Shown one piece after another: positions 1,123-10,789 of a stretch of DNA of 64,000 nt. The stretch is from Promethearchaeota archaeon (lineage in GTDB: Archaea; Asgardarchaeota; Lokiarchaeia; Sigyniarchaeales; SOKP01). The notes under the pieces are model-generated. The model was not told the DNA's origin, searched no databases, and saw only the letters and a list, made by a program, of their open reading frames with translations. The translations under genes and the position numbers were made by a program. The DNA lies in NCBI GenBank assembly GCA_016840165.1, contig JAEOSU010000076.1, positions 98,664 through 162,663 of the forward strand, in the 5' to 3' direction. Numbering within the stretch: position 1 is the first letter of the stretch; each line of letters opens with the position of its first letter.

Positions 1123-1379
1123 TAGTGTATACTTCTAATATGTTAGATGAAATGAATTTATTAATGATTTCTTTTATCTAAAATGTTATCTTTCAGTTCA
1201 TATTAATTACTAACCATTTATTCAATTTATAAGTATATTTTCTTAGATTAATAATGGTATTTATGTCTTTATTCAAGAATTTTCAAAATCATTCCAATTG
1301 GTTTTATAATATCATTTTAGCATGTTCTTAGTAAGTTTAAAAATAAACTTTCAAAAAATAAAAAAAAGAAGTGAAAAAA

Positions 1380-1715
1380 ATGAGTTTTGATAATGATTTT
1401 GATGAGGAATTGGAACCATTAAAGTCTAAAACGCCTACAAGTAAAACACCTTCAGCAGGAAAGAAACTGACTCTATATTTTATGTCAACTATCGGTCCTG
1501 GTGAAAAGAAAGAAAAGTTAACCGTAAATGATGCTAATCAAGTCAGTGATATTAAAGAAACCTTAGGAAATTTATACGGTCTTGACCCTGATGAATTTCA
1601 TTTATCATCTGGTGGAGTTACAATGGATGAAAGTAATCAATTAAAAGATTATAACGTAAATGATGGAGACGACATTCTTTTAATTCCTGCGAGTACGGCG
1701 GGTAGACTTATATAA
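1380..1715 (+). CDS. Ubiquitin-like (beta-grasp) modifier with N-terminal tail and C-terminal ...IPASTAG-RLI
   Basis: Ub-like pattern (VSDIKETL...L...G..M...QLKDYNVNDGDDILLI); first gene before E1/E2/JAB; ATG 5 nt after AGTGA. Confidence 0.85.
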   Translation: MSFDNDFDEELEPLKSKTPTSKTPSAGKKLTLYFMSTIGPGEKKEKLTVNDANQVSDIKETLGNLYGLDPDEFHLSSGGVTMDESNQLKDYNVNDGDDILLIPASTAGRLI

Positions 1716-1737
1716 TTTTCTATATAATTTATAATAA

Positions 1738-1769
1738 GAAGGCTTTAGTCCTTCATTTATTTTTTTTTT
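1738..1769 (+). terminator. Hairpin plus T-tract between Ubl and E1 genes
   Basis: GAAGG-CTTTAGT-CCTTC stem-loop followed by ATTTA and a T10 run. Confidence 0.45.
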
Positions 1770-1791
1770 ATTAATAATTAAGGTGATAGGA

Positions 1792-3015
1792 TTGGAGAAA
1801 AATTCAGATTTTTTTGGTAAAGAACTGTCAGTGGAGGAACGAGACTTATATGACCGCCAATTTCGCCTTGAAGGTTGGTCACAAAAGGTAGTAAAAAATT
1901 CGAGAGTCCTAATAGCAGGTGTAGGAGGTTTAGGTTGTGAAACTGCTAAAAATTTAGCTATGTTAGGTGTGGGTCATATCGATCTTGTTGATTTAGATAT
2001 AATTGAACATTCTAATTTAAACCGACAAATACTTTTTACTGGTGCTCAAATAGGAGAATCCAAAGCGATTGTAGCTGCTAGAAAATTGAGGGAAGTAAAT
2101 CCAAATATAACTATAAAAGGGTATTCTACCTCTTTAGAACGATTAAATCCTGAAATTTATCAAGCCGTTGATATTGTGGTTGGTGGTCTTGATTCGATGA
2201 TTGCTCGTTTAAACTTAAATGCGCAGTGTATAAGATTTAGAAAACCTTTAGTTGATGGGGGCGTATCTGGTTATCATGGGCATATCTATACCGTGTTTCC
2301 TTATAAAAATGCCTGCTATGAGTGTAACCCATTACCTATTGGCGAAAGTGATGAAATGGCAGCTTGTACTGTAGTTGGAATTCCCCGGAAAAGAATTCAC
2401 TGTGTTTTTAAAGGGGATATGGCTTTTAGAGAAAAATTTGATAGAGATCCAAATCCAAAAGATATGAATGATATAAAATATATTCAAAAAGCGGCAAATG
2501 AATTAGTAAATAAACATAATTTCTTACCCGAATACACTGAAGATGATATTGTAAAAATTATTGATAGACATGATCCAGGATTAATTACAGTTAATGCCGT
2601 TATTTCTGCTTTACAGTCTCATGAGACTATAAAGATTATTCATTGGAAAAAAGGGCATAAAGGATTAGGAGCGCCCATACAGGATTATGTTATCTTTAAT
2701 GGTATTACCATGAAATTATATCATATTGAAAAAAAAAGAAACCCAGAATGTTCTCAATGTGGAAGAAATGCTCGACGTGTTATTATAAAAATGAAAGCAC
2801 AGTCACCTTGCATGAATATTATAAAAATTTTAAATCATCATGGGTATAACTTAGAGGAAAATTTTGAACCCATTATTACACTATTGGATTTCAATGATAT
2901 ACAAGTTATTGATTTAGAAAAGAATGCTAGAGAAAATGATTTACGTAATTTAGAATTTTTAATTGTAGCTGGGTTTGTTGGTGGAGAAATTTATGTAACA
3001 CTAAAATTAAAATGA
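1792..3015 (+). CDS. E1 ubiquitin-like activating enzyme (ThiF/UBA family)
   Basis: YDRQ, GVGGLG, SNLNRQ, CYEC/CSQC zinc pairs, catalytic-Cys motif ACTVVGIPRKRIHC; TTG start 5 nt after GGTGA. Confidence 0.92.
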   Translation: MEKNSDFFGKELSVEERDLYDRQFRLEGWSQKVVKNSRVLIAGVGGLGCETAKNLAMLGVGHIDLVDLDIIEHSNLNRQILFTGAQIGESKAIVAARKLREVNPNITIKGYSTSLERLNPEIYQAVDIVVGGLDSMIARLNLNAQCIRFRKPLVDGGVSGYHGHIYTVFPYKNACYECNPLPIGESDEMAACTVVGIPRKRIHCVFKGDMAFREKFDRDPNPKDMNDIKYIQKAANELVNKHNFLPEYTEDDIVKIIDRHDPGLITVNAVISALQSHETIKIIHWKKGHKGLGAPIQDYVIFNGITMKLYHIEKKRNPECSQCGRNARRVIIKMKAQSPCMNIIKILNHHGYNLEENFEPIITLLDFNDIQVIDLEKNARENDLRNLEFLIVAGFVGGEIYVTLKLK

Positions 3016-3101
3016 ATTTATGATCAAAATAAATATTTATAATAATTGTCTTATCAAAAACTATAAGAATTGAAAATTAAAAAAAAAGGGGTTGAAAAAA
3101 A

Positions 3102-3629
3102 TTGAGTTTAAGAAGTAGTCGTATTTCTCGAGATTTTGCGGGTTTAAAAAAGATGCTTAAGAATGGAACCATGGTTCAATTAAAACCATTTAATCCAAAA
3201 AAAAAAAGTATTGATCATTTAGCTATTACTATCAGAGGTCCCAAAGGAACAGCTTATGCAGGGGGTCTTTTTAAATTAGAAATGAAATTCCCTGCTCAAT
3301 ATCCTAAGCAGCCTCCATTTGTGAGACTCCATACACCAATTTGGCATCCAAATTTTTGGCCTAAACCAAGTGAATATAAAGGACAAAGAAATATCTGTTT
3401 AGCATTAGTTGATCCTTCTTTAGTTGGTAAAAAAGGAGGTTGGAGTCCTTCGAAAACAGCAGTCACTATAGTGCAAGCAATAATTGCTATGTTAAATACA
3501 CGCGGAAAATATGTTAATCCAACAGATGTATTTAATAAAAAAGCAGCAATCGAAATGATAAAGGATCAAAAATTCTTCGAGAAAAAAGTTAAAAACCTAG
3601 TAAAGAAGTATGCAAAAGAAAAGTGGTGA
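3102..3629 (+). CDS. E2 ubiquitin-conjugating enzyme (UBC fold)
   Basis: GPKGTAYAGGLFKL, FPAQYPKQPP, HPN...ICL (catalytic Cys), WSP motifs. Confidence 0.93.
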   Translation: MSLRSSRISRDFAGLKKMLKNGTMVQLKPFNPKKKSIDHLAITIRGPKGTAYAGGLFKLEMKFPAQYPKQPPFVRLHTPIWHPNFWPKPSEYKGQRNICLALVDPSLVGKKGGWSPSKTAVTIVQAIIAMLNTRGKYVNPTDVFNKKAAIEMIKDQKFFEKKVKNLVKKYAKEKW

Positions 3630-3636
3630 AAATAAT

Positions 3637-4443
3637 ATGAAAAATGATGAAATTCCTGATGATCCAATTAGAGAAGCCATTAAACAAAAAATAAAAAACA
3701 AAATCAAAAAAGAATTACTTAAAGAAATATATTCGGAATTACAATTAGAAGAAGAAATTACAAACGAGATAACCACTGAAATAATTAGTGATCCTTTATT
3801 AGAGCATTCCGAGATCAATAAAGCTAATCTTGAACCGATTCCTTCAGAGATCGTAGAAACTTCTGCTAGTAATGGTAAATTTAAAGCACCTATAGCTATA
3901 AATGTAAAATCCATTCTAAAAATTGCCAGTCACGCATTAAAATATGCTCATTCAAAAATCCCAAGAGAAGAATGGGTTGAGGTTATTGGCTTACTTGCTG
4001 GAACATTTGATAAAATTCATAACGTTTTATATATTGAAGATGTTTATCCAATGGGACATGGTAATGCTGTGTATGCGGAAATTAAAGATTATAAAAATTA
4101 TGTAAGAGCTTTTAAAGATATCAAAAAAAGTAGATTGTTTATATGTGGCTGGTATCACTCTCATCCATCCTATGGATGCTTTATGTCTAGAGAAGATTTA
4201 GGTACCCAATCGCGGTATCAAACATTATGGGATAAAGCAATAGCACTTGTAATTGATCCTTATCAGATAAATGGAAAATCATTGGGTTTTGAAATTTATC
4301 GTGCGAATTTTAAAAAACGAGAGTGGTTTTCTGTACCTTTTGAGATTAATGGAAATTTAGATGTGGGAATGTTACCTGAAATTTTGGATTTTATGAACCC
4401 AATTATAGAGGGGAAGGCTGCTTATTTAGAATATGATGAATAA
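3637..4443 (+). CDS. MPN+/JAMM metalloprotease (Rpn11/CSN5-like)
   Basis: EVIGLL...GWYHSHPSYGCFMSRED...IDP, a complete JAMM motif; ATG 7 nt after GGTGA; ~85 aa N-terminal extension. Confidence 0.92.
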   Translation: MKNDEIPDDPIREAIKQKIKNKIKKELLKEIYSELQLEEEITNEITTEIISDPLLEHSEINKANLEPIPSEIVETSASNGKFKAPIAINVKSILKIASHALKYAHSKIPREEWVEVIGLLAGTFDKIHNVLYIEDVYPMGHGNAVYAEIKDYKNYVRAFKDIKKSRLFICGWYHSHPSYGCFMSREDLGTQSRYQTLWDKAIALVIDPYQINGKSLGFEIYRANFKKREWFSVPFEINGNLDVGMLPEILDFMNPIIEGKAAYLEYDE

Positions 4444-4463
4444 AATCAAAGGTTGATTAATCT

Positions 4464-5603
4464 ATGGTAAAAAAGAAAAATTTGATAATCCTTCTTTTTG
4501 TCTTAATTGGTTTTGTCCATGGGTTGATCTCAATTTCATTAAATATTTTTCTAACTTGGGTATTTATCGGTTTGTGGATATTTTTCATAATAAAAATTTT
4601 CGAAAACATAAAACAACATCGCGAATTTAATTCACCTTATAATACGGCATTTTTTGTTATTCTTCCTTTATTTATTGGGATCTTTTATTCTATGTGGGGC
4701 TACTATACGAATTTATTTGGTGAAAATCTCTTTATGAACTCCAATATCTATTTTAGTTTATGGAGCTTAATTTTTGGATTTCCATTTGTTTTATATGGAT
4801 CTTATTCATTATATCGTTGCTTTAAAAAGTATAATGTGATCTATTTTGGGAGAAGAGCTGTAAAGGCTAAAGTGGTTGGATATCTACTATCATTCTCAAT
4901 AATTTTTGGTATTATTCTTTATTGGATAATTTTTTACTCTATTATTGAGTTTTTTAATTATTTATTAATTCCTTTACATTTCTCTTTAGATTTAAATCTT
5001 TTAATCATTTTTATATTGACTATTCTAATTCTTATTTTATTTGGATTTTTAAATCCTCAAAGACGATTATCTCCTTTAACTCGAGAATATATAGCACAGC
5101 GTACTCGAAGAATTAATGCTCTCACAAGACCTAGTATTCAAAATCAGAGAGTAAAGACAACTAACCGATCAACTTCTCCCTCAACTAGAACAGTGACCCG
5201 ATCAACTACTACTTCCTATAGATCCTCAAGGATCACTCCAAAATCTAAAAGCCATGCGAGGAGAACAACAAGAACCACTGAAACTAAAAAGACAAAAACT
5301 AATCTAAAAATTCGAAATATAAATGCTTATAAGCCAAAAGCGGCATTTCTGACAGAAGAAGATTTCAAATGCATTTTCTGTTTTAATTTGCCAAAATTTC
5401 CCGAAGATAAAGGTAGAGGGATCATTTTATGCCCTAATTGTAGATATCCTTCCCACGCAGATGAGTTTAAAGACTGGTTAAAAACTTCAAATTTATGTTC
5501 ACGTTGTAGCGCACCCATTCCCTCTAGCTTTAGAAGAAATCCAAGAATTATTAGTATAAAAAATTATATTTCTATCTATAAACAAATTTTAAAAAAAACA
5601 TAA
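4464..5603 (+). CDS. Polytopic membrane protein with C-terminal variant RING finger (candidate E3 ligase)
   Basis: About 6 hydrophobic helices, an S/T/R-rich linker, then C-x2-C-x16-C-x2-C-x4-H-x2-E-x3-W-x6-C-x2-C; last gene of the Ubl-E1-E2-JAB run. Confidence 0.75.
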   Translation: MVKKKNLIILLFVLIGFVHGLISISLNIFLTWVFIGLWIFFIIKIFENIKQHREFNSPYNTAFFVILPLFIGIFYSMWGYYTNLFGENLFMNSNIYFSLWSLIFGFPFVLYGSYSLYRCFKKYNVIYFGRRAVKAKVVGYLLSFSIIFGIILYWIIFYSIIEFFNYLLIPLHFSLDLNLLIIFILTILILILFGFLNPQRRLSPLTREYIAQRTRRINALTRPSIQNQRVKTTNRSTSPSTRTVTRSTTTSYRSSRITPKSKSHARRTTRTTETKKTKTNLKIRNINAYKPKAAFLTEEDFKCIFCFNLPKFPEDKGRGIILCPNCRYPSHADEFKDWLKTSNLCSRCSAPIPSSFRRNPRIISIKNYISIYKQILKKT

Positions 5604-5635: not shown

Positions 5636-6595
5636 TTATTTATTTGTTCCAATAATTCTTCTTAATTCTCCAACCGTAGTTTTTAATTCTGAATATACAT
5701 TATGGGGATGGATGGATTCATAACTTTCAATAGTGAATTTAATTTTAGACTGATCCTCCAAATTTGGAAAATCACTCAGGATGAATCTTTTTGCCATTTG
5801 TCTGACTACATCCTCAGAAAAAAGTGGATTTAGATGAGCTGTTCGAACTAGCCTTGCCTCTTCTGGTCTTTTTAGAACTGACTGCATTTTTCCCGACATT
5901 GAACCTTCTATGATATCAATTATATCTAAAACATCAATTTTATGATTGTTTAAATCTTTAATCTGCACAATAATAGTTCCTTTTGATCGCTGATTATGAG
6001 AACTAAAAGGTAAGATATTGAGGAGTTTCTTAATATCTTCTTCCCGCAGATTGATATCTCTTCTATTTTTAATAATTTCTTCAGCATACTCTTGGCTCAT
6101 TTCTTTTGCACAAGGGCAAACCGTCATACCAACGGCACTTGCCCCAATATAGTAGTTAAAATCAATCTCTCCTGATTCATCCTTACGGGCTTTTACAAAA
6201 GAACTTATATCATATGACTTTTGGATATTTCTTTGTTGTTCATCTTTAGTTTGAACGACTATTTTGCCTTCAAGTTTTACATAGACTTTTCTGGTATAAG
6301 GATGCTTTTTGAGAAGTTCTCGTGCAATTCTATCTCCTACCACTTCTACAGATGGTGTTGGTTTGAAAATTACCTCATTTATGATCTCTTCGATAGTTTC
6401 AGAGGTGCGAGACATATGAATCCCTCGTTGTTTGGCAGGAAGAGATATCAGTGCAGAGATCTTAGGATAAAAGGAGTAGCGCTTATTTTCTTGAATGATC
6501 TCGACTTTTTTTTCGACACCAACAATCCCAACTTTATCGATAGGAATATCGATTTTTGAGCCAGAATTCTGTAAATCTTTTTTAAAGTGGCTAAT
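5636..6595 (-). CDS. mptA: GTP cyclohydrolase MptA (FolE2 family); start extended to ATT at 6595
   Basis: GIHMSR, TVCPC, HNQR, ESIHPHN motifs. The frame is open 60 codons upstream of the track's ATG and includes KKDLQN...DKVGI. Confidence 0.88.
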   Translation of the reverse strand: MSHFKKDLQNSGSKIDIPIDKVGIVGVEKKVEIIQENKRYSFYPKISALISLPAKQRGIHMSRTSETIEEIINEVIFKPTPSVEVVGDRIARELLKKHPYTRKVYVKLEGKIVVQTKDEQQRNIQKSYDISSFVKARKDESGEIDFNYYIGASAVGMTVCPCAKEMSQEYAEEIIKNRRDINLREEDIKKLLNILPFSSHNQRSKGTIIVQIKDLNNHKIDVLDIIDIIEGSMSGKMQSVLKRPEEARLVRTAHLNPLFSEDVVRQMAKRFILSDFPNLEDQSKIKFTIESYESIHPHNVYSELKTTVGELRRIIGTNK

Positions 6596-6733
6596 TAAGT
6601 ATCACTAACTTAAAATTATTTATCTATCTAATAAAAGTAGATATCTAATATAAAAAATATTAATGACCAAGTTTGTTCTACTAAAATTTATAATTTAATT
6701 TATATCATTACTATGCTTATCTAATTTAAAAAA

Positions 6734-7903
6734 ATGCCTGAAAAATATCTCTATTGTAAATTTGGGTTAATAGGAGAGAATTTAGAATTAAAACAAAATA
6801 TAAATTTGTCATTTGACAAAGAAGGAAAAATAACTGAGTTAAAATTTGATGAGATCGAAGCAGACATTAATTTTGATAGAACACGAGAAAATTATGTTAT
6901 GATTCCAGGATTGATAAATTCTCATATTCATATTGGAGATAGCTTTGCTAAAGAGAGAGGTCATAATAAAAGATTAATTGAAGTTGTAAGTCCTCCCAAT
7001 GGCATTAAGCATCTATTGTTGCGGGAAACTTCCGACACCAAAAAAATTAAAGGAATTAAATATGCTATACATGAGATGATATCGAATGGAATAACCTATT
7101 TTATAGACTTTAGAGAAAATGGAATTAAGGGGATTGAACTTTTACAAAGAGCACTAAAAGATGAGAGTATTAAATGTTTGATATTCGGCCGTTTTGATCA
7201 AATAGATGATCTACAGGAAGTATTTTACAAATCAGATGGAATTGGATTATCAAGTTATCATCACCTAACCGATGATGTAAAGTTAGAGCTTAGAAGAATG
7301 AAATCCCGTCTGTTTAAAAAGATAGCTTGTCATGTTGCTGAACTCAATCATGAACCTCTCCTTTTAAATGAAATATTAGAGGATGCTTTAGTCGATATAA
7401 TTGTACACGGAACACAATTAAAAATTCCCGATCTAAGAAAAATTCAAGAAAAAAAAATTAAAGTTGTGCTATGTCCGAGGAGTAATGGATATTTTGGACT
7501 CGGATATCCTCCAATTAAAGAGATGTTGGAGTTAAGTATTCCTTTTTCATTAGGAACTGATAATGTTATGGTTAATAATTTAAACTTATTTGAGGAAATG
7601 CGTTATTTATATTATACTGCAAGAAATCAAATAAACGAAGAGGATTTGGGCTATTTTAATGCTAAAAATATTTTTAAAATGGTTACTATTAATGCAGCTA
7701 AAAACTTCGACATTGAATCAGAAGTAGGGTCAATATCCTTAGGTAAAGCAGCTGATTTAGTTATGATTGATTTAAATAATCCAAATTTTTACGTTAATAA
7801 ATTAGATAAAGCTGAGTTCTTTTCATTACTTCTTCATAGGACTAATGTAAGGAATATCAACCAAGTATATATTGGAGGAAAGCTAATTTATGAAAGCGAC
7901 TGA
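6734..7903 (+). CDS. Amidohydrolase-superfamily metalloenzyme (deaminase-like)
   Basis: PGLINSHIH, HVAE, VHGT, CPRSN, LGTDN, GSI..GKAADLV motifs. Confidence 0.85.
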   Translation: MPEKYLYCKFGLIGENLELKQNINLSFDKEGKITELKFDEIEADINFDRTRENYVMIPGLINSHIHIGDSFAKERGHNKRLIEVVSPPNGIKHLLLRETSDTKKIKGIKYAIHEMISNGITYFIDFRENGIKGIELLQRALKDESIKCLIFGRFDQIDDLQEVFYKSDGIGLSSYHHLTDDVKLELRRMKSRLFKKIACHVAELNHEPLLLNEILEDALVDIIVHGTQLKIPDLRKIQEKKIKVVLCPRSNGYFGLGYPPIKEMLELSIPFSLGTDNVMVNNLNLFEEMRYLYYTARNQINEEDLGYFNAKNIFKMVTINAAKNFDIESEVGSISLGKAADLVMIDLNNPNFYVNKLDKAEFFSLLLHRTNVRNINQVYIGGKLIYESD

Positions 7904-8558
7904 TAAACCATATATCATTTTAAGTGCCGCTATGACCATCGATGGTAAAATAGCTTCTAAAGAAGGAGACACTGACATATCAGATGATAAAGATTGGAGG
8001 GAAGTCCATAAACTCAGAACTAAAGTAGATGCAATAATGGTTGGGAAAAATACAATATTGGCTGATAATCCAAAACTCCATATTAAATTTTATTCCCATT
8101 CTGGTTATTATCGTATCGTAGTAGATAGTAATTTAGTAACGCCAATAGACTCTAATGTTATTACATATCAACTAGACTTATATCCTACTATTATTTGTAC
8201 TACTGAAAATGTACCTATTGATAAAATTAGGGAATATGAAGCAAAAAATGTTAAAATTATTACTTCTGGTCGAAAGGAGCACGTTGATATAAATGCTTTA
8301 TTACTAAAATTACATCAAATGGGTATTAAGTCAATTCTATTAGAGGGGGGAGGAAATTTAAATTGGAGTTTTATAAAAGAAAACTTAGTGGATGAAATTC
8401 GATTGACAATCGCTCCTTGGATTATTGGAGGGCAAAATGCGATTAGTTTGGTTGAGGGAGATGGCTTCTCGCAAATGAAGAATGCACCTCGGTATCATCT
8501 ATCTAAAGTTAAAACAAGAAATAATTATGTAAAATTGAAATTTTTGAAATTGACATGA
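7890..8558 (+). CDS. arfC: 2,5-diamino-6-ribosylamino-4(3H)-pyrimidinone 5'-phosphate reductase (archaeal Rib7/RibD-C)
   Basis: AAMTIDGKIA, DAIMVGKNT..DNP, LLEGGG, VDEI...IAP motifs; no deaminase domain. Confidence 0.9.
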   Translation: MKATDKPYIILSAAMTIDGKIASKEGDTDISDDKDWREVHKLRTKVDAIMVGKNTILADNPKLHIKFYSHSGYYRIVVDSNLVTPIDSNVITYQLDLYPTIICTTENVPIDKIREYEAKNVKIITSGRKEHVDINALLLKLHQMGIKSILLEGGGNLNWSFIKENLVDEIRLTIAPWIIGGQNAISLVEGDGFSQMKNAPRYHLSKVKTRNNYVKLKFLKLT

Positions 8559-9658
8559 GAAAATCGACATTACCTATAGAAAAACTCAAATCAATATCAT
8601 TACGCAAGATACAAAAAAAAGTAAGTGAGATTACGAGTGAGTTTAATAAAGAACATGATAAAGTTATAACTTATTCAAGGAATTTTACAATTTCATTGTC
8701 TAATTACTGTCTAAATCATTGCAGTTATTGTTTTTACAATCATCGGGTGCCTAAAGATCAAGATAATAGAAATACCATATTACTTTCTAATTCTAAATTA
8801 GACTCATTAATTGATAGTGCAAAAAAATTTGATTGTAAAGAAGCACTAATTTTATCTGGGGAAGTACCAGACAGTTTTCAAATTGTAAGAGATGAACTTA
8901 AAGCCAGAGGTTTTGCGTCATTTTTCCGATATTTGGTCACTTTATGCAATAAACTTTTGGATATGAACTTCTTACCTCATACTAATGTGGGGTTAATCTC
9001 TTTTGATTATATGAAAGAATTGAAGAATATTAATGCATCAATGGGATTAATGTTAGAGAGTACGTGCGAAAGATTATCAATGAAAGGAGGAGTTCATGAA
9101 TTTTCTCCTGGAAAGATGCCGGAAAAAAGAATTAGGTTTATTGAAAATGCGGGAAAACTTAAAATTCCGTTCACGACTGGTCTATTATTAGGGATCGGAG
9201 AGGATGAAACAAATAGGATTGAGGATTTATTTTTAATATACGAACTACATAAAAAGTATGGTCATATACAAGAAATTATCTTACAAAATTTCATAGAGAA
9301 GCAGAATATTCAATATCATCCCATTAGGCCTATACCCATAGAAGAAATACTCAGAATAATTGGTATTGCTAAAATAATTATGGGAAATGAAATTGAAATC
9401 CAGGTTCCCCCAAATCTTTTAATGGGTTATGAAAAAGAAGCAATAACAATGGGGATTACTGATTTTGGAGGTATATCGCCAATAACATTAGATTATATCA
9501 ATCCAACTCATCCATGGCCCCAAATCGACTATTTAACAAAAATTTGTAAAAAAGAAGGGTATGAATTGAAAGAAAGATTACCTATTTATGAGAAATTTAT
9601 TAGAAAAGAAGGATTCTGTTCAAAAAAAATTAAAGCTGTAATTAATAAAATAATGTAG
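8555..9658 (+). CDS. cofG: FO synthase subunit CofG (radical SAM)
   Basis: TYSRN, CxxxCxxC, LPHTN, ASMGLMLE, PFTTGLLLGIGE, QVPPNL, DFGGISP. Confidence 0.92.
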   Translation: MRKSTLPIEKLKSISLRKIQKKVSEITSEFNKEHDKVITYSRNFTISLSNYCLNHCSYCFYNHRVPKDQDNRNTILLSNSKLDSLIDSAKKFDCKEALILSGEVPDSFQIVRDELKARGFASFFRYLVTLCNKLLDMNFLPHTNVGLISFDYMKELKNINASMGLMLESTCERLSMKGGVHEFSPGKMPEKRIRFIENAGKLKIPFTTGLLLGIGEDETNRIEDLFLIYELHKKYGHIQEIILQNFIEKQNIQYHPIRPIPIEEILRIIGIAKIIMGNEIEIQVPPNLLMGYEKEAITMGITDFGGISPITLDYINPTHPWPQIDYLTKICKKEGYELKERLPIYEKFIRKEGFCSKKIKAVINKIM

Positions 9659-9664
9659 AGACAT

Positions 9665-10789
9665 ATGGCAGCAGCATATAACCATATTGATAAAAAAGTA
9701 AAGAAAATTCTCAAGAAAGCTGAAAATTCTGAGGAGATAACCAAAGATGAGGCTTTGGAATTATTAAAAGTAACCGGAAATGAATTTTTTGCTCTACAAA
9801 ATACTGCGAATAACCTTTGTTTTCAGAAAAAAAATAATGTGGTAACCTTTGTTATAAATCGTAATATTAATTTTACAAACATTTGTTATCAGGGATGCCG
9901 TTTTTGTTCCTTTAGCGTTCCTAATAAAGAAAAAGATGCTTTTCTTTTAAGCATTGAAGAGATTCATGATAAAACTGTGCAAGCATATCATTCAGGATGT
10001 ACTGAAATATGCATTCAAGGGGGTATAAATCCAGATTTAAATTTTGAATACTATTTAGATATCTTAAGTATTGTTAAAGAAGTTAATAGGAATCTCCATA
10101 TTCATGCCTTTTCTCCCCAGGAAATTTTCTACATGGCGAAATTGCATGGTACTAGCATTGAAGAAACTTTAAAGGAACTTAAGAAAGCTGGATTAGATTC
10201 AGTTCCTGGAACTGCAGCAGAAATTCTTGTTGATAAAGTAAGAAAGATTATTTGTCCAAAGAAAATATCAACCGCACAATGGATTAATATTATAAAGACA
10301 GCCCATAATCTGGACATTCCAACCACTTCAACGATAATGTATGGCCATATTGAGGATCTTATAGATCGTGTAGAGCATTTACACATTTTAAGAGAAATTC
10401 AAAAACAAACTTCTGGGTTCACTGAATTTGTACCACTTCCTTTTGTAAACGAAAATCCCATATTATCTAAATTACCTAACTTTCCCTTAAGACTACATTA
10501 TGGTATGGGAGATCTAAAGTTATTTTGTGTTGCAAGGCTATTTTTTAATAATTATATAGACAATATTCAATGTTCGTGGGTAAAATTAGGTCCTAAGATG
10601 GCTCAGGTTTCGTTAAACTATGGTGTAAATGATTTCTCCGGCACACTGATGGAAGAAAATATATCAAAGTCAGCGGGAGCAGATTATGGAGAGTATTTAT
10701 CACCTCAAGAAATAACATCTATAATAAAAACAGCAGGAAAAAAACCTGCTCAAAGAGATACTTTGTATAAAATTTTAAAATTTTATTAA
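9665..10789 (+). CDS. cofH: FO synthase subunit CofH (radical SAM)
   Basis: NRNINFTNICxxxCxFC, PGTAAEIL, TSTIMYGH, FTEFVPL, NIQCSWVK, GTLMEENI; follows cofG. Confidence 0.92.
   Translation: MAAAYNHIDKKVKKILKKAENSEEITKDEALELLKVTGNEFFALQNTANNLCFQKKNNVVTFVINRNINFTNICYQGCRFCSFSVPNKEKDAFLLSIEEIHDKTVQAYHSGCTEICIQGGINPDLNFEYYLDILSIVKEVNRNLHIHAFSPQEIFYMAKLHGTSIEETLKELKKAGLDSVPGTAAEILVDKVRKIICPKKISTAQWINIIKTAHNLDIPTTSTIMYGHIEDLIDRVEHLHILREIQKQTSGFTEFVPLPFVNENPILSKLPNFPLRLHYGMGDLKLFCVARLFFNNYIDNIQCSWVKLGPKMAQVSLNYGVNDFSGTLMEENISKSAGADYGEYLSPQEITSIIKTAGKKPAQRDTLYKILKFY

Follow-up and report, generated by a model that had tools for sequence, protein, structure and literature searches.

A conserved Asgard operon encoding an Ala-Gly ubiquitin-like modifier, its E1, E2 and JAMM enzymes and a membrane protein with a predicted variant RING domain

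The operon of Caldiarchaeum subterraneum, which encodes ubiquitin, E1-like, E2-like, small RING and Rpn11-like JAMM proteins, has been reconstituted (PMC5654768), and the action of its Rpn11 as both a processing and a deconjugating enzyme is established (PMC6043591). In Helarchaeia, an E1, an E2 and a small RING E3 working with a di-Gly pro-ubiquitin modify UEV-Vps23 (bioRxiv 10.1101/2023.07.25.550441), and the clustering of ubiquitin and ESCRT genes in Asgard archaea has been surveyed (PMC9192718; PMC11188069). Archaeal E1-E2-RING cascades of eukaryotic type have a central place in thinking on the origin of the ubiquitin system, and the archaeal ligases described so far are small soluble RINGs that go with Gly-Gly ubiquitin. 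Here we analysed a stretch of 64,000 nucleotides (G000:C58:98664-162663; hereafter the window) from a Promethearchaeota archaeon whose genome assembly (GCA_016840165.1) comprises 3.6 Mb in 105 contigs. Near its start lies an operon for a ubiquitin-like modifier (Ubl), an E1, an E2, a JAMM protease and a polytopic membrane protein with a predicted C-terminal RING domain. The operon is real and complete. A preliminary description had left open whether such a system was undescribed; the kind of cascade is itself published, but neither a membrane-embedded RING nor an Ala-Gly modifier in Asgard archaea is described in the searchable literature, which excludes subscription journals, and these two components are new to that literature.

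The operon, its modifier and its enzymes

Five open reading frames (ORFs) on the plus strand occupy positions 1371-5603 of the window. They encode a pro-Ubl of 114 residues (Ubl2; 1371-1715, with the ATG at 1380 as the likely true start), an E1 activating enzyme of 410 residues (1783-3015), an E2 conjugating enzyme of 175 residues (3102-3629), an Rpn11-like JAMM/MPN+ metalloprotease of 277 residues (3610-4443) and the membrane RING protein (4464-5603). The gaps between them are, in order, 67, 86, −20 and 20 nt, the negative value being the overlap of the E2 and JAMM genes. The first four products were assigned by Pfam matches that each exceed the curated cut-offs, with E-values of 4.8e-7 for ubiquitin (PF00240), 1.2e-59 for ThiF, 9.8e-26 for UQ_con and 2.3e-13 for JAB; NCBIfam gave no matches for the Ubl, the E2 or the membrane protein. 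As in Caldiarchaeum, a ubiquitin-fold modifier and the E1, E2, RING and JAMM roles are thus gathered in one cluster. The named homologs all come from metagenome-assembled genomes of the Promethearchaeota/Lokiarchaeota type (Asgard), the closest being 81% identical.

The co-oriented order Ubl-E1-E2-JAMM-membrane RING was complete in 60 of the 61 species-representative loci that had enough flanking sequence, and the full order was also found in other families and in very divergent members. Because the arrangement is kept in 60 of 61 loci, it is not due to chance. The preliminary description had proposed precisely these five co-oriented, closely spaced genes, and the ORF map, Pfam and the RING fold and profile tests described below confirm them; it had also named a loss of synteny of the RING-membrane gene in relatives as a result that would speak against the system, and the loci compared across Asgard genomes showed no such loss.

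The membrane protein was detected in 23 of 24 genomes of the same genus and in several families of the order, and in a sample of 301 genomes of the phylum, nine or more families showed full-length matches (E < 1e-30). The genes for the JAMM enzyme and the membrane RING are adjacent in Heimdallarchaeia/Kariarchaeaceae and the E2 gene is nearby, with the E1 and Ubl genes elsewhere, so the JAMM-membrane RING adjacency is the most conserved linkage. The E2 is ~60% identical to the Heimdallarchaeial versions, and in several same-genus loci the cassette is adjoined by the gene for an MptA-type GTP cyclohydrolase. Given this shared chromosomal position beside MptA, the near-universal presence in the genus and the E2 identity across classes, the distribution is that of a vertically inherited core function and not of a patchy defence island.

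The same observations bear on whether the cassette is a mobile anti-virus module of the bacterial Bil/CBASS-Cap2-Cap3 kind, which would tag viral proteins with the Ubl at the membrane. Bacterial Ubl-E1-E2-JAB operons do act in phage defence (bioRxiv PMC10557695), and the E1 weakly matches the E1-E2 models of PADLOC (28-61 bits, in the adenylation domain only). However, PADLOC gave no matches for the Ubl, the E2 or the membrane protein and only a marginal one for the JAB domain, in a 2023 library that may lack Bil models, and a cassette present in nearly every genome and locus counted above and, in several same-genus loci, at the same place beside housekeeping cofactor genes, is hard to reconcile with a mobile module. 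With generic E1 matches and a vertical distribution, the cassette was not classed with the bacterial defence Ubl systems represented by Cap2/Cap3 and the PADLOC models, and we consider a defence role very improbable.

The pro-Ubl consists of an acidic leader with an L-K-S-K-T-P motif, a ubiquitin-fold core, a mature end ...IPASTAG whose last residue, Gly111, is encoded at nt 1701-1703, and a tail RLI at nt 1704-1712. Among orthologs, the leader is 35-60 residues long and carries K-T-P repeats, the end ...LLIP-A-S-T-A-G is invariant, and the following tail varies from 0 to 4 residues: in the species-representative loci, the operon copy stops exactly at the Gly in 43 and has a tail of 1-4 residues in 21. 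The RLI tail is common to the present Ubl and its closest relatives. A second Ubl (Ubl1), encoded upstream of the window at C58:97786-98196, ends exactly in ...STAG and is thus already mature. In distant cassettes the Ubl ends in ...VSTAG(-RGY) or ...HSVAG, and in one of them (L033, 2-577) two or more Ubl units are joined head to tail in the product of the modifier gene (...HSVAG|VDDDF...HSVAG). Because the end is invariant, the tails are variable or absent and the distant cassettes are alike in this respect, we regard Ala-Gly as the predicted functional end of the modifier. Trimming after the Gly would be required for some Ubl copies only, which fits the linked Rpn11-like protease as a putative processing and deconjugating enzyme.

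A profile of 17 Ubl sequences matched ubiquitin best, and also the Caldiarchaeum Ubl, FAT10 and ISG15, in a profile search of the PDB. As the preliminary description had supposed, the modifier is not canonical ubiquitin: it belongs to the ubiquitin family by Pfam, yet it has an N-terminal leader and ends in Ala-Gly where the modifiers of archaeal ubiquitylation operons end in di-Gly. Compared with Caldiarchaeum, the match of the Ubl profile and the short-tailed pro-modifier are shared, whereas the Gly-Gly end is replaced and the leader of 35-60 residues with K-T-P motifs is a difference. The Asgard Ub-ESCRT cascades belong to the same phylum and likewise have eukaryote-like E1, E2 and RING proteins and a pro-modifier with a cleavable tail, but their ubiquitin is di-Gly, their RING is soluble and has an N-loop, and they are linked to ESCRT genes, which do not adjoin the present cassette.

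The C-terminus of the Ubl resembles that of UFM1, in which a single C-terminal Gly follows a small hydrophobic residue; a cleavable tail and a membrane-associated ligase are further points of likeness. In contrast, the E1 and E2 of the present operon are of the canonical UBA/UBC type with HPN, not UBA5/UFC1, and the Ubl scores best against ubiquitin. At the sequence level, membership of the UFM1 family was rejected, as Pfam found no Ufm1 match and the 60 best PDB matches of the Ubl profile included no UFM1 chain. Asgard Ufm1 homologues have been reported on partial and multi-region matches (PMC12962969), and the present Ubl family shows matches of this sort, so the two sets might overlap even though the sequence tests do not support Ufm1 membership.

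The E1 has a GxGxxG nucleotide loop at residue 46, zinc-binding CxxC pairs at 178 and 323, the catalytic Cys195 and a C-terminal domain of ~77 residues that is presumed to be a UFD. Its nearest solved relatives are the SUMO E1 UBA2 (7e-39), UBA1 and the NEDD8 E1 UBA3, the last aligned over residues 37-333 and thus through the catalytic-Cys region. Over the 14-15 orthologs on which the catalytic motifs of all three enzymes were judged, the nucleotide loop, both CxxC pairs and AACTVVG[IV]P with Cys195 were kept in every sequence. By these alignments the E1 is classed as eukaryotic in type, and a catalytic-Cys insert is shared with Caldiarchaeum. This bears on a sulfur carrier of the SAMP/Urm1/MoaD-ThiS type, whose E1 would merely thiocarboxylate the Ubl. 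The adenylation domain does score against MoeB/ThiF models, but far below the cut-offs of the MoeB, ThiF and SAMP-E1 equivalog models, and the enzyme has the eukaryote-type catalytic-Cys insert and no rhodanese domain. Moreover, an intact E2, RING and JAMM are co-inherited with it, cofactor-sulfur genes are not part of the conserved cassette, and a separate short ThiF of the MoeB/UbaA type is encoded on contig C4. The sulfur-carrier explanation is thus hardly credible, and with both a Cys insert and an E2 the operon was not assigned to the SAMP/Urm1 type, whose E1 lacks the insert and which has no E2.

In the E2, HPN82-84 and Cys99 are invariant, and short insertions flank the Cys on both sides. 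Its nearest solved relatives are ordinary eukaryotic UBCs, which top the PDB list, and no specific orthology was seen among them. The JAMM protein has an acidic N-terminal extension of ~95 residues, and its gene overlaps that of the E2 by 20 nt. Its top PDB match is the Caldiarchaeum Rpn11-like protein (6fjv, 4.5e-15), with eukaryotic Rpn11 also matched, and the JAMM motif is intact and invariant (Glu124, H183-S-H185-x7-S193-x2-D196). The catalytic motifs of the Caldiarchaeum/Asgard-type operons are therefore present in all three enzymes.

The membrane protein and its RING domain

In the fifth protein (379 residues), a disordered basic linker connects six transmembrane (TM) helices with a Cys/His-rich zinc domain at the C terminus. 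Its family comprises ~120 clusters at 50% identity, which databases name only "hypothetical protein", without a Pfam domain. The zinc domain (residues 290-379; window 5331-5603, plus strand) has its predicted ligands at C303, C306, C323, C326, H331, E334, C345 and C348, a C4-H-E-C2 pattern in which the seven Cys/His ligands have the canonical cross-brace spacing of a RING and an invariant Glu334 replaces ligand 6. Over 40 sequences, down to 17% identity, the seven Cys/His ligands, E334 and W338 are strictly invariant, as is F305. The residues by which a RING contacts its E2 correspond to I304/F305 in the first zinc loop and W338 in the helix.

An AlphaFold model of the isolated domain had a predicted local distance difference test (pLDDT) score of 80. 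When it was compared with the PDB by Foldseek and by an independent aligner (48,161 chains), nearly all matches were RING or U-box domains, including RNF4, Ring1b/Bmi1, HRD1, Rbx, CHIP, Pex12 and Prp19, with Z scores of up to 5.3 for the isolated domain and of 7.7 and 7.1 in the full-length model. The homogeneity of these lists, rather than any single score, is what we read as the signal of a RING in the models.

The zinc domain does not reach the Pfam gathering threshold for a RING, and a search of the genome with PF13639 retrieved other proteins and not this one. Homology was found at the level of profiles. A profile of the RING domain searched against 1.84 billion representative proteins gave 121 matches, ~100 of them of the same architecture, and the weak tail of the list contained small archaeal proteins that exceed the Pfam zf-RING_2 cut-off. 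Aligned with these zf-RING_2 relatives by hhalign, the family gave a probability of 98.5% and an E-value of 2.2e-15 with all ligands in register, Glu334 facing their nearly invariant ligand-6 His; as the comparison set was taken from the matches of the family profile, this is transitive homology via independently validated RINGs. The small archaeal proteins (e.g., P0225 and P0228) are the closest relatives of the domain in sequence and have the same C-x2-C-x17-C-x2-C-x4-H-x2-H spacing and the conserved Trp, but they measure 126-300 residues, are soluble or fused to a zinc ribbon, have His at ligand 6 and pass the Pfam RING cut-off.

When the RING domain was modelled in complex with its cognate E2, the score was 0.70, a value attained by 58 of 80 solved complexes and by 2 of 110 mismatched pairs, whereas the best of three controls scored 0.02. 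Three runs agreed in their contacts, with a pLDDT of at least 90 for the partner. In the modelled interface, helix 1, residues 68-69 and the W-S-P loop of the E2 face RING residues 304-308, 334, 338 and 341-349, that is, docking is predicted at the surface that carries the invariant F305 and W338. As E2 and RING are a textbook pair, the result may reflect a memory of solved complexes; we take it as a sign of likeness and not of binding. From the predicted fold, the profile-profile homology and the modelled E2 docking together, the assignment of the zinc domain as a RING is well supported. The assignment of the cascade is well supported too.

The protein might nevertheless be something other than a ligase. 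It could sit in the membrane as a receptor, an anchor or a substrate and use its zinc domain simply to bind one of the other components (Ubl, E2 or JAMM enzyme; for example, to tether the last), with conjugation proceeding independently of an E3 as with SUMO and Ubc9. This would suit the finding that the JAMM-membrane RING linkage is the most conserved one and persists where the E1 and Ubl genes are elsewhere; Glu at ligand 6 and the failure of the Pfam RING models also speak for it, and an I-x-x-K-T-P motif, discussed below, looks enough like a consensus site to permit direct recognition by an E2. On the other hand, the classical E2-contact residues are invariant, the modelled E2 docks exactly on the classical surface, and the hhalign homology to RINGs is strong. 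E2 binding by a RING domain normally goes with activation of the E2. We consider a non-ligase role improbable.

The TM domain (residues 1-221; window 4464-5126, plus strand) was modelled mostly with pLDDT above 90, the full-length model as a whole reaching 77. Hydrophobic segments span residues 4-200, and the six modelled helices are at 2-23, 26-54, 62-78, 99-121, 135-160 and 177-195, with a short hairpin at 125-134. The linker that follows (residues ~222-289; 5127-5330, plus strand) is rich in Ser, Thr, Arg and Lys, falls below pLDDT 50 over the disordered residues 222-282, and varies among orthologs in length and sequence. The basic residues are concentrated at the N terminus, in the loop at 55-61, in the hairpin at 122-134 and after helix 6, so that the positive-inside rule predicts both termini inside and the RING in the cytoplasm alongside the E2. 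The best-conserved pieces of the TM domain, REFNSP and a KKY..IYFG.K hairpin, are both on the predicted cytoplasmic face.

Foldseek of the full-length model against the PDB returned only RING matches and none for the TM domain, a wide fold alignment of the TM domain found generic helical bundles (Z ≤8), and a structure search of the Atlas returned the family itself and a RING-bearing Asgard cluster at TM-scores of 0.34-0.43. A chain of the HRD1 complex (9uav_B) was aligned over 111 residues with Z 6.8 and a root-mean-square deviation of 3.6, which is within the noise of helical bundles. The RING here is not the small soluble E3 of the Caldiarchaeum-type operon but the C-terminal domain of a six-TM protein, with Glu at ligand 6. 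The preliminary description had likened this protein to membrane-embedded ligases of the Hrd1/MARCH type; a polytopic protein with a cytoplasmic C-terminal RING is indeed predicted, but homology of the TM domain to Hrd1 did not emerge from the comparison. The present protein resembles Hrd1/gp78, MARCH and RNF ligases in its multi-pass membrane domain, flexible linker and cytosolic RING for a soluble E2, and the RING of HRD1 is among the structural matches of its RING domain; it differs from these ligases in that homology of the TM domain is not demonstrable, in its C4-H-E-C2 ligands as opposed to RING-H2 or C4HC3 RING-CH, and in a modifier that is not ubiquitin proper. In one divergent locus, the gene next after the membrane RING gene (L033:4870-5454) encodes a RING-less paralog of the TM domain with 194 residues.

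The wider locus and a proposed pathway at the membrane

The locus is larger than the five genes to which the preliminary description had confined it, as further components lie upstream, partly outside the window: the second Ubl, a membrane Ubl-domain protein, a winged helix-turn-helix (wHTH) regulator and a coiled-coil protein. Compared with Caldiarchaeum, the second Ubl, the membrane Ubl-domain protein and the coiled-coil protein are additions, and all three are conserved. The divergent gene for the membrane Ubl-domain protein (G000:C58:98242-99024) is partly upstream, and the window contains the N-terminal 120 of its 260 codons at 1-361 on the minus strand. In this protein, which is conserved in same-genus loci, two TM helices and an acidic middle are combined with a C-terminal Ubl domain that ends in ...LIPRNKK and lacks a terminal Gly; the full-length protein scores 31.7 bits against the Pfam ubiquitin model.

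The coiled-coil gene (367 residues; G000:C58:96509-97612, minus strand, or L119:2510-3613) lies upstream of the window, and its place near the cassette is conserved in over 55 genomes. Pfam gave only sub-threshold coiled-coil matches for it, and its Atlas scores were at most 0.83. An I-x-x-K-T-P motif is common to the Ubl leader and this neighbour: of 60 coiled-coil orthologs, 55 have it N-terminally and 55 C-terminally, in many cases as IKSKTPS units repeated in tandem. In the present coiled-coil protein the C-terminal copy reads IKSKKP.

Two related loci carry a further Ubl protein beside the cassette. In the ~583-residue proteins of family f4 (L016:2213-3964 and L017:9691-11448), a VWA domain is combined with a CDC48_N-like region (a sub-threshold match) and with a Ubl at the C terminus; as this Ubl ends in ...STAG plus a tail, activation and conjugation of the whole large protein would be possible.

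The analysis directly supports the gene content, the catalytic motifs, the homology and fold of the RING, the conservation and the synteny. On this basis we think it probable that the operon encodes a dedicated, vertically inherited system by which Asgard archaea conjugate a Ubl on the cytoplasmic side of the cell membrane. The biochemical steps, the membrane targets, the part played by the motif and that of Glu334 in metal binding are all inferred, as follows. The modifier would be made either mature (the upstream Ubl1, ...STAG) or with a short tail (the operon copy, ...STAG|RLI), and the Rpn11-like JAMM enzyme would trim the tail and cleave tandem precursors to expose the C-terminal Ala-Gly. 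The E1 would adenylate the Gly of the modifier, take the modifier onto Cys195 and pass it to Cys99 of the E2. The six-helix membrane protein would bind the charged E2 via its C-terminal RING through the canonical surface (I304/F305, Trp338 and the second zinc loop), Glu334 standing in the place of metal ligand 6, and the RING would promote discharge of the Ubl onto lysines of membrane or membrane-proximal proteins. The JAMM enzyme would also remove the mark. I-x-x-K-T-P is a candidate acceptor or recognition site, which might serve chain formation in the Ubl leader and make the coiled-coil neighbour a built-in substrate.

Several points weigh against this proposal. All components are known here from genes and predicted structures alone. 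Most orthologs encode an already mature Ubl, hence JAMM processing is not generally required. For the zinc domain, the Pfam RING models gave no score at E 0.1 or better and only sub-threshold zinc-ribbon noise was seen, the single structural scores are modest (Foldseek E 0.03-0.3; Z ≤7.7), and with Glu as ligand 6, zinc site 1 may be altered or absent. Asp is a zinc ligand in Rbx1, hence a carboxylate at a ligand position has precedent. The TM domain has almost no invariant residues, no conserved polar ones and no recognised fold, and nothing in it points to a ligand. Three single-contig genomes from the same order yielded no full-length homolog of the membrane protein, and in the 301-genome sample some families likewise yielded none, for example f11 (0 of 76 genomes). 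Finally, a strict form of the motif, [ILV]-x-[STEK]-K-T-P, occurs in six ORFs of the genome, three of which are at the present locus, but the pattern was derived from the locus proteins themselves and this rarity count is partly circular.

Quality control, which the preliminary description had suggested as a possible purpose, would, as a function akin to endoplasmic-reticulum-associated degradation (ERAD), be a special case of the proposed conjugation system: the TM bundle would recognise misfolded or orphan membrane proteins, which would pass to Cdc48 for extraction and to the proteasome, with the membrane-anchored Ubl-domain protein as a Herp/TMUB1-like adaptor. The polytopic TM domain with a cytosolic C-terminal RING is as in Hrd1/gp78-type ligases, a likeness of architecture only, and the HRD1-complex chain is among the TM-domain matches; its Z of 6.8, however, is below the guide of the tool for helical bundles and is no evidence of homology, and the near-lack of invariant residues in the TM domain also speaks against this function. 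A Ubl-domain protein that is not conjugatable is encoded next door, and the CDC48_N-like, VWA and Ubl fusion of f4 adjoins the cassette, but no gene link to the proteasome or Cdc48 was seen at the present locus, and the conserved coiled-coil neighbour with its acceptor-like motifs points instead to a specific substrate. A search of the genome for Derlin (PF04511) found no match and was uninformative, as the model was also unmatched in control genomes. We consider the ERAD-like function unlikely, though it deserves mention.

A fuller version of the proposed system is put forward only tentatively. It would be a second Asgard Ubl pathway, distinct from that of Gly-Gly ubiquitin, in which the Ala-Gly modifier is conjugated at I-x-x-K-T-P by way of the membrane RING, forms chains on its own leader and marks the coiled-coil protein at the membrane; such a pathway could be a prokaryotic forerunner of eukaryotic membrane ubiquitylation (ERAD, cargo tagging) with a SUMO-like consensus-site logic. 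If a membrane RING ligase with an Ala-Gly modifier is truly spread from Lokiarchaeia to Heimdallarchaeia, the membrane-directed tagging that underlies ERAD, receptor down-regulation and ESCRT cargo selection would have a counterpart in the archaeal relatives of eukaryotes. The system is compact and reconstitutable, with five small genes, a RING domain of 90 residues and a defined candidate acceptor motif.

Other Ubl components of the genome and flanking genes

A paralogous pair of an E1 (527 residues, with a long insertion) and an E2 (169 residues) is encoded at G000:C53:25079-28362, with 43% and 39% identity, respectively, to the operon pair. No Ubl gene was seen near this pair, and its modifier may be a di-Gly Ubl encoded at C4:44374-44565 that ends in -TQAGGA. 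The neighbourhoods of the C53 pair and of the C4 Gly-Gly Ubl showed no obvious Ub-ESCRT cluster. Contig C4 also encodes the short MoeB/UbaA-type ThiF mentioned above, and several canonical RING-H2 proteins are encoded elsewhere in the genome. Because of this separate E1/E2 pair, the di-Gly Ubl, the MoeB-type ThiF and the RING-H2 proteins, the Ala-Gly cassette is an additional system and not the sole one of the genome. The three strict-motif ORFs away from the locus (C60:12565-13731, C64:244-1896 and C88:3456-5198) are possible further substrates.

Between the membrane Ubl-domain gene and the operon, a divergently transcribed regulator of the double wHTH type (ArsR/TrmB-like) occupies 447-1122 on the minus strand. 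It is split into ORFs of 66 and 157 residues in different frames at a run of eleven A near 941-951, whereas relatives have one ORF of 223 residues; the split is either a homopolymer assembly error or a real frameshift. Scans of the window for tRNA genes and Rfam families gave no matches. In Heimdall-type and divergent loci (L035 and L033/L034), genes for small GTPases of the Arf/Ras family recur on the downstream side of the JAMM-membrane RING pair, within a few kb of it. On its other side, the operon is flanked by a cofactor island at 5636-10789 of the window, which begins with the MptA-type GTP cyclohydrolase gene (GCHY-1, minus strand) and continues with genes for an amidohydrolase, a reductase of the RibD C-domain type and radical-SAM proteins resembling CofG/CofH.

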